Position numbers and translations under genes: made by a program | Shown here: one piece after another, positions 9,101-64,000 of the stretch | How positions within the stretch are numbered: the first letter of the stretch is position 1 | Layout of the letters: each line of letters opens with the position of its first letter | Notes under the pieces: generated by a model | What the model was told of the DNA's origin: nothing | Databases searched by the model: none | What the model saw: the letters and a program-made list of their open reading frames with translations, nothing else | Origin: Octopus vulgaris | Taxonomy: Eukaryota | Assembly: GCA_951406725.2 (NCBI GenBank) | Contig: OX597823.1 | Location: forward strand, 54,932,001 to 54,996,000 | Direction: 5' to 3' | Length of the DNA: 64,000 nucleotides

Positions 9101-11253
9101 AGACATTGAGTTTGACAAAATATATTTTCTTCCATCTGAAAGTATTACACAACACTATATATATATATATATATATATATATATATATGTATATATAGGA
9201 GACAGAGAAAAGTCCAAGAGAAAAGGAAGAAGGAGGGAAAATTGCGAACAATCCACATGTAATTACATTTTGAATATATATATGTAACTCTTTTACTTGT
9301 TTCAGTCATTTGACTGTGGCCATGCTGGAGCACCGCCTTTAGTCGAGCAAATCGACCCCAGGACTTATTCATTGTAAGTCTAGAACTTTTTCTATCAGTC
9401 TCTTTTGCCGAACCACTAAGTTACGGGGACGTAAACACACCAGCATAGTAGAAGACACTTGCCCAAGGTGCCACGCAATGGGACTGAACCCGGAACCATG
9501 TGATTCGTAAGCAGCCTACTTACCACACAGCCACTCCTATGCCTATATATATATATATATATATATATATAAATATAAAATATATATATATATATATATA
9601 TATATTTATATATATTTATTTATTTATATGTATATATACATATATATATATATATGTCAGGCCATGACAGACAGAGAGGATGTTCTTGAAGCAGAGAATG
9701 CAAGCTTACAGAGACAATATTTACATGTCGCTTGAGGAAATACAACTAGATCTCATAATGCAGGGAAACAGCTGCATAATCAAGCATGCCTGGAGAACTA
9801 CACTGCATGGAAGCAATTGTAGTGATAAAAAATAAATGCCCAGCCTTACTCCAAATGTTTTCATTTATCTATTCACACACAACAGATGCCCAAATGCACA
9901 ACTGGAAGTATGTATGATACTACAACTTGATAGCACAGGGGGAAATCTGAAGGTGGACAAGATTTATACTGTACTCTACTATGTTCTTAATAGAATATAC
10001 ATTTCGATGGGCTTCTTTCAGTTTTCGTCTACCAAATCCACTCACAAGGCTTTGGTCAACCCAAGGCTATAGCAGAAGACAGGTGCCCAAAGGGGCCATG
10101 CAGTGGGACTGAACCCAGAACCATGTGGTTGGGAAGCAAGCTTCTTACCACACATATACACATATGTATATATATATATATATAAGAATTTTAGAAACTT
10201 CTATATGAAATTAATAATTTTTCACAGGTAGAACTCCAGGCAGATAAAAACTATAAATAATAGCTTGTAGAATATTGTGTTAAAAAGCTTACACAACCAA
10301 CCTTCAACATTTTTCTACCCCTCAACTATTTTCCTTCCAAGGGATTTTAAAACCAATATTTTACATGTTAATATTCATACATGTACTCATTTTTGTCAAT
10401 TTTCATTTATTTCTTAGCCTAAGTGACTGAAATTATTATGCAATTACCCAGAGTATGTCATTAATAGAATTTGCATGCTAACTGAGAAATTATGAAAATT
10501 CAATATATTGGCGGTAGCAAGGTATTGAGATAGTTACAAATTTATGGATTGCATATTAATAGAAAAATGAAACTGTGTGGTAAGAAGCTTGCTCCAAGTC
10601 ACCTTCTCAAGTTATGCTGACTCATAAAAGCTGGTTTCCTAGTTTCATAATGAATAAATTCCCCACCTGGATGGGATGCTGGTTCATCGCAGGATTACTC
10701 ATTTTTGCCAGCTGAGTGGATTGGAGCAAATTGAAATGAAGTGTTTTGCTCAAGAACACAACACGTCACCTGATCCAGGAGTTGAAACCACAATCTTGTG
10801 ATCATGAATTCAACACCCTAATCACTAAGCCATGTACCTCCACAAGAAGCTTGCTTATTAACCACATTGCTCTGAGTTCACTCCCTGTGCATGACACCTT
10901 AGTCATATATATATATATAGGATAAATTTAAGACTTTAGCTCTTATTTCTAGCAGGTGGATGCATGTTAAGCATCCTTACGCTTCATACAAATTTATAAT
11001 TCATAGCTATTTAATGCTATTGCACCTGCGATCCACCTATGTCACTGCTGGTGATATCATCAATTTAAAGATTTATCCACAGATGATATGAACAGTAGTG
11101 ACATCTGATTTCAAATCTCAGTGTTTGAATGTTTTGTGTATATATATATATATATATATATATATGTAAGTATATACCTATGTGTGTCTTTGAGTTTGTG
11201 TTTCTCCCACCACTACCACCACCATCCCCAACACAACCACCACCACCATTAAT

Positions 11254-11428
11254 CACATATATGATTAATGAGAGACAGAAGATGGCATATAGAGTTTTTA
11301 TCGATCACTACAATTATTTCGACCTATCTAGCCACAGCCCTTCACAGGTGGGGTACTGAACAGCTGATTTAGGTGTACCTTTCAATTGGGTTTTGAGATA
11401 TTTTGATAAAGCATTGGTTTGTTTGCAT
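11254..11428. repeat. Dispersed ~170-bp repeat, second copy at about 18153-18327
   Basis: Near-identical gattaatgagagacagaagatggc...ttttgataaag in both places. Confidence 0.9.
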
Positions 11429-12173
11429 CCCCCTTAGTTCAACATGAGAGATCAATAGAATAAGTATCAGGTTTAAGATAAGTAGTAGGGTCAAATTGCC
11501 CCACTAAAACCCTTCAAAGCAGTACTCCAGCATGACTGCAGTAAAAGACAAAATATAAAAGATACAGTATGTTTTGTTTTTTTTTGTGTGTATACACAAT
11601 TTACAAACGTTACACCAAATCCCAAACTGTTTTTATTGATGAATATTGGTAGAACGATTGATTGATTTTTTCGATTCTCTTTGATATTCTTCAATTACCC
11701 AATCTTTACTTGAGTCATATGTTCTCTAACACACTTTGAATTAATTACTGAATAATAACAATTAGGGTCATGCTGATTAAGAAAAATGTAATTGGATCAA
11801 TCAAAGAGTAATTAGTTAATAATGAAAATAACAAAATAGTATTGATTTGCCATTTACTTCAAAACTAACCATTCGGAAATTTCATGTTCAACAAAGGGTT
11901 ATATATTGTAGGATGTTGTTTATTACTTAATTAAAACTAAGATGAAAATAACCCCAGAATATGAACCTTGAAACCTTGGTAATTTCAGTTTATTAAGGGG
12001 TAATTGGTGACACCTGCAGAAACTGGAAGAAGGAAGAAGTTAGGGAATACACTGAATGAGAAGTTATATAATGGGCCTTAGGGTCTTACTGGTTGGTTTC
12101 AGAAAGTTTTGTTGAGGACAAGAGGATATGGAGGTTCGTGATTAGTGATGGCTGAAGATATATGATGAAATTA

Positions 12174-61154: not shown

Positions 61155-62151
61155 TACATCTAAAGAAAAATTTTTCATTAACCTCTAAAATACTACAGTG
61201 GACTCCACCCCAAATTCTTATATGAACCCCAGGGGTCACTGTTTTAAAGTCAAATCCTGAAGGATGCACCACCACCATGTTAAGAACTGCTACTATGCAC
61301 TATTTGTCTTGTATCTTTTTATCTTTTACTTGTTTTAGTCATTTGATTATGGCCATGCTGGGGCACCACCTTGAAGAATTTTAGTCAAAAGAATTGACTC
61401 CAGTACTTATTATTGTTTTTTTTATGTCTATTTGTATTTATATAACAATACAATAATTGTTATCATTACTGTTGTCATAGTCGTCTTATTGTTGCTGCTG
61501 TCAATGTCACCACCACCACCATCATCATCATCATCGTCGTCGTCGTCGTCATCATCACCACCACCAACACCACCATTATCCTCACCATTTTCATTATGAC
61601 CGATATATTCTAACTGATCATGATTAGTGTCACCACCATCACCTCTACCATCACCACATCATCATTAACTTATTATCCTCCACCTGGCTACCACCACCAC
61701 CACCACTACCATCATCACCACCACCACTACCACCACCACCAATATTATTATCAACAGCATGATCACCATCATCATCATCATCATCATCATCATCATAATT
61801 ATCATCATTAGAATCAGAATCAGCATCTTCAGTCCAATTCTCATTATTTTATTTAATTAATTAATATCTATCTTCTTTATTATAAATATTCTTTCTACCA
61901 CTTCCTATCCACTCACCCACCGACCCACTTTCTTCATTCTAAGAAACATTGCAATTCTTAATTGTTTACAATGTAGAATTACATGTGGCTGTGTGGTAAG
62001 AAGTTTGCTCCCCAACCATATAGTTCTGAGTTCAGTCCTACTACATGGTACCTTGGACAAGTGTCTTCTACTATAGCCTTGGGCTGACCAAAGCATTGAT
62101 TGGATTTGGTTGAAGGAACCTGAAAGAAGCTCATCATATACATATATATAT

Positions 62152-62473
62152 CATCATCATCATCGTTTAGCGTCCGCTTTCCATGCTGGCATGGGTTGGA
62201 CGGTTCAACTGGGGTCTGGGAAGCCAGGAGGCTGCACCAGGCCCAGTCTGATCTGGCAATGTTTCTACGGCTGGATGCCCTTCCTAATGCCAACCACTCC
62301 ATGAGTGTAGTGGGTGCTTTTTACGTGCCAGGCGAGGCTGGCAACGGCCATGATCGGATGGTGCTTTTTATGTGCCACTGGCACAGAGGCAGTCGGGGCG
62401 GCGCTGGCAATGGCCACGTTCGGTTGGTTCTCTTATGTGCCACCGACACTGGTATCACAGCTACAATTTCCAT
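62152..62473 (-). mobile_element. RTE LINE 3' UTR fragment
   Basis: (CAT)n followed by cgtttagcgtccgctttccatgctggcatggg.... It ends at the same truncation region (tacaatttcca) as the 17315 copy. Confidence 0.8.
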
Positions 62474-64000
62474 TTATATAAATATATATATATATACTTA
62501 CAAGTGTTCAATGTGGCCGTGTATTATTTTAAAAAAAACACTACAACTACCATATGTACTGCAACCAGAATCTTCTGTCTCCAGCGCTGGCTCTCCCCCC
62601 TCTCCCACTCTACTTCATCATCATAGACAAATAACAGCATTTTCGCGGTTCGCTTAGTTATAGATTTAGTGTCTGAGTCTGGACAAAGAATCTCTTCTGT
62701 ACACATAACAATCTTTCATTTCATGTAGCTGCAACACCGTCACATGTATATTTTTACATTTTAATTTTTTTTTGTTTGCTTCGGAAATGAAGATGGAATT
62801 ACTGGATAATGGTAAAAAAAAAAACTGTGTAGTGTGATATGATGTCATGGGCTGTGGGAAGTGATGTTGTGGAGTTTGGTGCAGTGATGGTGAGCTGTGA
62901 TGTGGCCAACATGATGGAATCTTGATGTGATGTGCTGGAGTATTGATGCGGTTTTTTGAAGGGGGGGGAATGTTGATATATTGTGGAGGGTGATGTGATA
63001 CAGTATAGTGGAATGACAGGGTAGAGTATGTATGTATGTATGTATGTATGTATCTATCTATCTATCTATCTATCTATCTATCTATATATATATATATATA
63101 TATATATTATACTATGAATCTCTCCATAACTTACAAAGCCTTATGCATATGTTTACAAATATTATATGTAATATATATATATGTATATATATATATATAT
63201 ATATATATACATATATCATTATATTAATTCCTACACATTTTTATTTCTCTCACTGTGTTTTCCTTCTCTCACCATTTTGTTTTTTCCTCTCGTCCCTATC
63301 TGTCAAAAAGCGTAGGTTGAAATGTCAAAGACTTTTCCATTCTTTCTGAGCAACAAACTAAACTGTCATCGTTTTATGTTTTCTGTACATTTGAAATATA
63401 TATGTATATAAACATTAAAGGCACAACATTGTTATGTTTTTTGGATGATAACTAATGAGGAACCAGCTATGTTGTGTATGTGAATTTTCAATTTGTTGTG
63501 TTTCCAATAAAATTTTGGAACATGATATATGTGTGTGTGTGTGTGTGTGTGTGTGTGTGTGTTATAAATTATATGTATATAGATTTTTTCATGTTTTTTT
63601 ATTATAATAATTACTGCTATCCTTATATATTACTATAGTTTATATCTTATATCTTATATGTAAAGAATAATATGCTATATGTATGTATGTTATAATAATT
63701 ATCAGTTTAATAAATAAATAAGTTAACATAATTTAATGTCCAAAAGTTGATGAACCACCTATTGTTCTCCTCCATTTTCTTATTTGCTATATAAAAATAT
63801 ATATATCGTTGCTATTATGTTAAATTGTCGTATGTCCAAATTTGGCCAACTGCATTTTTTTCAGTATTCATTTTTTACTTGCAATAGCTGATTCTTTTGG
63901 TCAAACTATTGTATCTCCAGCTGCTTCAGATACCAAGATATGAAAAATAGTACAACAATTTAGCTATGGAATGGTGAAGCTATTTTTTTTTTTTTCTGAA

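Follow-up and report, generated by a model that had tools for sequence, protein, structure and literature searches.

Most hammerhead motifs in a 64-kb stretch of the Octopus vulgaris genome appear to be pseudo-LTR ends of autonomous Penelope-like elements

Hammerhead-bearing elements in the window

We analyzed a 64,000-nucleotide (nt) stretch of the Octopus vulgaris genome (GenBank assembly GCA_951406725.2, contig OX597823.1, positions 54,932,001 to 54,996,000; hereafter the window, numbered from its first letter), for which an initial annotation had proposed eight hammerhead ribozymes in a diverse set of non-autonomous mini-elements related to Penelope-like elements (PLEs). The window is 36% GC and rich in microsatellites, in an assembly of 2.8 Gb. 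Judged by the open reading frames (ORFs) upstream of their genomic relatives, six of the eight sites are the pseudo-long terminal repeat (pLTR) ends of autonomous PLEs: those at 13373, 18745, 33068 and 29531 belong to Hydra-clade elements, and the pair at 55840 and 63296 to a Neptune-type element.

One of these copies, assigned to family A, is a spliced short pLTR copy of a Hydra-clade PLE at 13184..13452 (−), where 247 of 254 aligned columns match the joined exons 1 and 2 of an ORF-bearing locus, L228. It has a 12-nt 5′ micro-inversion (13441-13452), an exon junction at 13428|13427 and an optional 3′ tail (~13184-13268), followed by (TA)n. Its intact minimal type I hammerhead (13373..13418, −) combines helix I CCAC/GUGG, the core CUGAUGA, a 4-bp helix II and the palindromic helix III CGAUCG; cleavage is predicted after GUA, and a dimer fold is predicted. 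Family A is also represented by a head-to-head inverted pair without a ribozyme (29655..29916), one arm tailed and the other untailed, that the initial annotation lacked; its presence contradicts the claim that the flanks of the sites share no homology outside the 55840/63296 pair. The 3′ ends of three further Hydra-clade families follow. Family B lies at 18715..18991 (−), flanked by (TA)n, with an intact hammerhead (18744-18836, −) that has a long branched helix II and CGAUCG. Family D lies at 33048..33154 (+), its core intact (33067-33125) and its helix I mutated from 6 to 3 bp. Family E lies at 29501..29622 (−), with a dead hammerhead (29527-29609) that has lost G12 and, through a 14-nt deletion, part of helix I. 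The Neptune-type family G contributes a 3′ end at 55774..55924 (−), whose minimal hammerhead (55840-55875, CUGUGGA) carries U at position 6 and has lost a helix III pair, and two heavily decayed copies at 63225..63390 (+; motif 63296-63330) and 14300..14410 (+; motif 14309-14344), the latter absent from the initial annotation.

A structural descriptor scan of the window found complete type I cores starting at 13414 (−), 18829 (−), 60672 (+) and 33071 (+; helix I of just 3 bp), all of which have the canonical core C3 U4 G5 A6 N7 G8 A9 ... G12 A13 A14 A15.1 ... U16.1 H17. There were five descriptor matches, four of them at previously annotated sites, against a mean of 0.15 (maximum 2) in 100 local dinucleotide shuffles; with a helix I of ≥4 bp, there were three matches against 0.07. 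The frequency of the motif is thus well above the shuffled expectation. One descriptor match in low-complexity sequence (27330-27432, −; core 27429), whose helix I has 3 bp and whose helix III is AT-rich, is probably chance. Genome-wide, pattern counts against reversed-pattern controls were 682 to 1 and 20,137 to 0, the former for the exact CGAUCG-type motif, which spans several families. Additional families with a CGAUCG helix III, some beside inverted Hydra-type ORF pieces, were encountered outside the window (L006, L008, L010-L012, L015, L017, L023, L030). Helix I differs in sequence among families and keeps its pairing. Exact patterns matched 1,819 times for the family A 3′ end and 22,042 times for the family G motif. 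First-look DNA candidates, which are not copy numbers, came to 4339 for family C, 3379 for B, 1583 for F, 1275 for E and 1134 for D; every site searched by DNA therefore exceeds 1,000 candidates. The families are high-copy.

Real type I hammerheads are present among the eight annotated sites. Those at 29531, 55840 and 63296 have decayed and belong to families that carry a hammerhead; that at 9726 is not a hammerhead. A palindromic helix III, also part of the earlier description, holds for 13414 and 18829 (both CGAUCG) and for the consensus of the 60672 family (CCAGCUGG), and family D is near-palindromic. Element ends abut on (TA)n in families A, B, D, E and G; no such abutment is present in two window copies, those at 55840 and 60665. 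A (TA)5 tract is found within 300 nt of about half of the positions in the window, so mere proximity to (TA)n means little, but copies do end in (TA)n, in agreement with the proposed targeting of this microsatellite. Rfam found no such motif in the window (among the best 150 of 278 matches, dominated by microsatellite matches to miRNA models), no hammerhead or twister that reached the gathering score, either there or in 17 loci, and neither of the two at E≤10 in three small regions.

Links to autonomous Penelope-like elements

Upstream, each of the families A, B, D, E and G runs into same-strand ORFs with reverse transcriptase (RT) and GIY-YIG endonuclease (EN) domains, which makes their short copies 5′-truncated or 5′-end copies of autonomous PLEs. 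The suspected PLE connection is thus borne out for these five families, and the description of the elements as non-autonomous is mostly wrong, family C (60665) alone looking like a retrozyme. For family A, a Hydra-type EN lies upstream on the same strand in 4 of 6 long loci. L228 carries, in order, RT, linker, GIY-YIG, a 2-kb 3′ untranslated region (UTR), a splice donor, an intron of 1,116 nt, the same hammerhead as in the window copy and the 3′ end, and it is 97% identical to the window copy. The family B end is reached in 8 of 12 EN-bearing loci (chosen via the EN/UTR stretch of L190), and Hydra-type ORF pieces lie upstream on the same strand in 6 of 20 family D loci and 7 of 20 family E loci, and are inverted in 3 further D loci. 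In A, B, D and E the hammerhead sits in the 3′ end in sense orientation; no direct 5′ pLTR was seen in the loci examined. Family G, the end of a young PLE with 24,093 first-look candidates and 112 scored matches at 91-94% identity (query excluded), has RT+GIY-YIG ORFs of 961-1214 amino acids (aa), with the motif in the 3′ pLTR of 16/16 loci (chosen from the 112 matches for their long ORFs) and in the 5′ pLTR of 13/16.

The Hydra-type ORFs of families A, B, D and E show DKT, CxCx5C, CxxC-E and a (TA)n target, the motifs being scattered over broken copies and represented in E by the linker and CxxC-E alone. Because these motifs match published clade definitions (Craig et al. 2021, PMC8557442), we assign the four families to the Hydra clade. 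Published Hydra-clade PLEs share with them a C-terminal GIY-YIG, DKT, an RWK-like motif, the CxCx5C linker, CxxC/CxH around E and N, canonical hammerheads, (TA)n insertion, an inverted 5′ copy and an optional tail; the elements described here are longer (~5.6 kb in L153, against a reported <3 kb), and family A differs in its 1.1-1.3 kb pLTR intron and its abundant spliced genomic copies. The family G ORF has DKG, a CX4CxxC linker and, at its C terminus, GIY-YIG, and relatives of its protein are tagged PF00078 and PF01541. Neptune PLEs (Cervera & De la Pena 2014, PMC4209133) share DKG, a CX2-5CxxC linker, an extra nucleotide after A9 in a minimal hammerhead, a G10.1-C11.1 pair, a palindromic 15.2-16.2 and a U-rich 5′ flank; "Neptune-type" is used here as a motif label, since the CX2-5CxxC linker also occurs in Nematis.

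A Hydra ORF family (L151-L170) was rejected as parent of the window sites, its hammerhead being different, and a Hydra RT remnant (L185) was not clearly linked to family A. The sole named match of one Hydra-type ORF was to Argonauta, at 39% identity. An intact-looking Hydra-clade PLE on another contig (L153, C5:142942200-142952199, −) encodes a 960-aa ORF with long Asn-rich inserts, known from rotifer PLEs too (PMC3846280), between pLTRs of ~880 bp; its hammerhead has a very long helix II and a CAGCUG helix III, and many near-identical copies exist. An octopus Hydra family is already in print: Hydra-1_Obim of Octopus bimaculoides is listed with a (TA)n preference and "no pLTR" (PMC8557442 supplement).

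The family A intron and the ends of copies

Family A carries a GT-AG intron of 1.1-1.3 kb that ends 13 nt before the ribozyme core. A hand count of the first 100 of 450 matches gave 58 spliced junctions, 34 unspliced and 8 other, and spliced and unspliced forms both occur in all three junction variants. Spliced copies, among them that of the window, stop near the likely transcription start, and long copies keep the intron. Contigs from 2 of 4 sequencing runs presumed to be RNA skip 1116 nt between GT and AG; because spliced copies exist in DNA, this skip is no evidence of expression. Polypyrimidine-AG stretches resembling splice acceptors lie upstream of the hammerhead in three family D loci (L113, L115, L119) and one family B locus (L052), so that B and D may have pLTR introns as well. 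Beside one family A copy lies a degenerate match to 5S rRNA (L022:919-1037, +).

Where copies begin was examined in 64 family A insertions chosen by their 3′ end alone. Twenty extend as far as the junction or into the first exon, ending no more than ~37 nt from the junction. Another 7 are longer and retain the intron, 14 are cut short at other places, and 23 have a 5′ end 80-103 nt from the 3′ end. A separate set of 23 matches contains sequence from upstream of the start site; of these, 20 are unspliced, and the 3 spliced ones run just ~15-50 nt further. Half of the 64 insertions are two-armed, and in 32/32 of these one arm is tailed and the other untailed; inversions were seen in B and D also. 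In family G, 25 of 69 copies have 5′ ends at 200-218 nt from the 3′ end (12 of them at 212), 1 begins within 5 nt of the cut site, and 3 fall in the interval that matches the family A pile-up.

The arrangement in family A recalls the Drosophila virilis Penelope (PMC4209133; Schostak et al. 2008, PMC2377424), in which an internal promoter, a short first exon and an intron ending at or near helix I are likewise found. The first exon measures 46 nt there and ~30 nt in family A, and the Drosophila intron is 75 nt long and mostly kept in genomic copies, whereas that of family A exceeds 1 kb and is absent from more than half of the listed junctions.

A proposed origin for the short copies

It is quite probable, in our judgment, that six of the eight sites are the pLTR ends of several autonomous PLEs (four Hydra-clade families and one Neptune-type) and that the short copies are run-off cDNAs made after an internal start of reverse transcription. 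The RT would begin within the mRNA of its own element, just behind the first pLTR, and run off the RNA 5′ end; the pile-up of 5′ ends upstream of the ribozyme would then mark the pLTR transcription start, placed ~25-30 nt ahead of the intron donor in family A and ~80 nt ahead of the core in family G. The EN would nick both strands of the (TA)n target, and the RT would prime two cDNAs from two adjacent internal start sites, yielding one tailed and one untailed arm. The source of short copies would be the spliced pLTR that lies next to the promoter in the mRNA, and long copies would come from read-through RNA in which the intron of the 3′ pLTR goes unrecognized, probably since its donor sits in a multi-kb exon. 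We predict that the hammerheads are slow, that they depend on dimer formation or on protein, and that reverse transcription does not require them beforehand. Family C is likely a non-autonomous retrozyme that this machinery copies from RNA in circular or tandem form.

A close parallel is the anole Poseidon element PAc (Frangieh et al. 2024, PMC11167929), for which two adjacent internal RT starts explain the tail, both strands are nicked and uncleaved RNA is the main template. In that in vitro system the ribozyme is dispensable and its cleavage was seen only with the protein. The one-tailed, one-untailed arms of family A fit the two start sites, and the 32/32 rule would be their genomic counterpart; PAc was shown in vitro, while the octopus families belong to other clades and are known from their genomic footprint. 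An antisense template has been proposed as the reason that PLEs keep introns (PMC3846280). Splicing in the sense orientation argues against such a template for the short copies and says nothing direct about the long ones; for the question of intron retention, the spliced sense copies show that sense RNA is copied, at least in short insertions.

Several observations weigh against the run-off proposal. The 23 insertions noted above (of 64) begin at or just downstream of the cut site, which lies 98 nt from the 3′ end, and two copies start exactly at the cut (L277, L292); cleaved RNA may thus be a real template in family A. This pile-up is explained equally well by template switching and alignment error, because the stretch is AT-rich and self-complementary and alignments across it are imprecise. 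The transcription start is placed from copy ends alone, the family samples are first-listed matches that come mostly from one contig (C1), and the clade names derive from motifs and the Pfam tags of relatives rather than from a tree. Pfam-A returned no match on three PLE ORFs. No parent ORF was found for family F, whose 20 loci include PLE pieces in 2, of conflicting clades. Transcription of solo pLTRs into short RNAs, followed by copying in trans, could also yield short spliced copies.

This last point belongs to a broader alternative, in line with the initial annotation, that the short copies are self-propagating non-autonomous elements, similar to short interspersed elements (SINEs) or retrozymes, whose solo-pLTR transcripts are mobilized in trans by PLE proteins. 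Short copies do greatly outnumber long ones and have defined 5′ ends, family C is circularly permuted and has no linked ORF, and pLTR-derived retrozymes have been reported (10.64898/2026.07.22.740005). We nevertheless find the alternative improbable, since a continuous series leads to ORF-bearing copies in families A, B, D, E and G, identical family A junction variants occur both spliced and short and unspliced and long, the window copy is nearly identical to an ORF-bearing locus, and head-to-tail arrays of short A or G units were not seen in the loci examined.

Less credible still is an obligatory role for hammerhead cleavage before reverse transcription, as proposed previously (PMC4209133), by which the cut would set the template 5′ end or make circles. 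The family A pile-up near the cut site and the conservation of helices and core in all families speak for it; against it stand the single family G copy in 69 that starts at the cut, most others reading through, the 34 of 64 family A insertions that extend beyond the cut, and ribozyme mutants that left insertion in vitro unaffected (PMC11167929). Finally, the idea that repetitive, AT-rich DNA produced the motifs by chance, as the failure of 9726, the doubtful match at 27429 and the silence of Rfam might suggest, is refuted for families A-E and G by the shuffles, the genome-wide controls and a helix I that stays paired despite sequence differences.

The overall system that the run-off proposal describes, PLE pLTR hammerheads in (TA)n, is already known. 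Earlier publications cover the hammerheads of PLEs, their dimer logic and their abundance as solo motifs, the (TA)n targeting of Hydra elements and the kinship between retrozymes and PLEs (PMC4209133; PMC8557442; PMC7229834; PMC6765202; 10.64898/2026.07.22.740005), and 235 Rfam hammerheads were listed in the giant squid (PMC6962438); the word "ribozyme" does not occur in the accessible part of a 2026 octopus repeat annotation (PMC13282606). The U6 core, the spliced/unspliced split of family A and the one-tail rule look new, and these side results bear on open PLE questions: hammerhead upkeep and intron retention.

A U6 hammerhead core in family G

Family G is the commonest family, with at least 14,711 exact full motifs genome-wide. 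Its hammerhead, CUGUNGA-A-GAGC-GUAG-GCUC-GAAA-CG-UH with a helix I of 4-5 bp, is the textbook minimal PLE form save for U6; the published Neptune consensus is CUGANGAH, with U3-A8 as the core variant there (PMC4209133). Instead of A, U occupies position 6 in 139 of 147 aligned copies (some of which may be both pLTRs of one element), in 92 of the first 100 and in 16/16 intact young elements. Position N7 is split over all four bases (75/34/20/18), and H17 is U or A. An alternative register, U3-U4-G5-A6, was rejected because position 4 would then vary across subfamilies. When the consensuses of the four U6 subfamilies are compared, 1-2 of the 39 positions in the hammerhead differ, N7 or H17 in every case, whereas in the flanks 6-38 of 102 positions do (two subfamily pairs were tested, with Fisher p 0.003 and 3e-5; T-rich flanks may inflate the flank counts). 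A sister motif with the canonical A6 has 6,008 matches, and in a family of this kind a pair of helix I is exchanged for another with pairing kept.

This conservation shows selection on the fold in active masters, which is not in itself proof of catalysis, and family G is likely a new ribozyme variant with putative activity. A natural A6C variant cleaves at <0.1 per min (PMC3088659). No natural A6U hammerhead was found in the literature searched, which included PMC11014351 and the supplement of PMC4209133; Lunse et al. 2017 (PMC5785218) and the Terminon paper may list one. Standard CUGANGA descriptors would miss the whole family, and a U6 kept across subfamilies in more than 14,000 copies offers a ready test of whether catalysis or the fold alone is selected. 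Tentatively, and with somewhat more doubt than belief, we advance a joint proposal for families A and G: that PLE intron retention in family A is position-dependent, so that on a sense-strand template one and the same intron is removed beside the promoter but stays in the 3′ pLTR, and that the A6U hammerhead of family G, taken as the most prolific of the recently active PLEs in this genome, is functional, aided by dimerization or by protein, and kept through at least four subfamilies that change solely at N7 and H17.

Families C and F and neighboring features

Family C is a 355-nt ORF-less unit represented in the window by slightly more than one unit (60454..60833, +), with an intact canonical-type hammerhead (60656-60718, +) whose helix I has 7 bp plus an extension. 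A piece at 59900..59943 (+), 95% matched to 60763-60806 and separated by an unrelated repeat, is likely an upstream part of the same insertion. No contiguous PLE ORF was found in 20 loci and 6 extended ones. Half of the 18 aligned copies exceed one unit, 7 carry an inverted piece, and the 3′ ends cluster at 69-74 (6 copies) and 126-130 (5 copies). The longest copy measured 538 nt and none had two cores among the best 20 of the 4339 candidates; exact intact motifs numbered 2. Family C thus appears to be an old retrozyme-like family with a permuted unit. The animal non-LTR retrozymes of Cervera & De la Pena 2020 (PMC7229834) resemble it in their ORF-less unit (150-450 nt, a range that includes the 355 nt of family C), type I hammerhead with long helix I and permuted copies longer than the unit, but among the copies seen family C, unlike them, shows neither a two-hammerhead dimer nor a multimer, and it is old.

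Family F is a 5′-truncated repeat (9656..10000, +) whose relatives end in (TA)n. Its motif at 9731-9776, annotated as a hammerhead at 9726, has no helix II beside GAAA and no U16.1, in the window or in a 15-copy family alignment. A CUGAUGA motif lies ~870 nt upstream of the 9726-equivalent site, outside the window copy, in 2 of 6 extended loci; in one locus (L399, −) it stands ~1.2 kb from the element 3′ end, unusually far. No twister was found in the family (Rfam, E≤10).

The suggestion that sense-oriented copies could cleave host pre-mRNA finds no support: the 141 ORFs of the window yielded no host exon, Pfam recognizing in them only pieces of Tc1-like transposase and one weak COMM match, and four of the window hammerhead sites are degraded. 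The transposase pieces belong to a broken Tc1/mariner-type gene at 2530-3321 (+; HTH_Tnp_Tc3_2, DDE_3), and the COMM_HN match at 5791-6027 (−; E 0.003, below the curated cut-off) is possibly a host exon or chance. A perfect 140-bp inverted repeat pair (16882-17021 / 17505-17644) is probably a young DNA transposon or a miniature inverted-repeat transposable element (MITE), and nested inverted repeats at 38141-39149 (38141-38214/39076-39149 and 38369-38528/38749-38911) are MITE-like.

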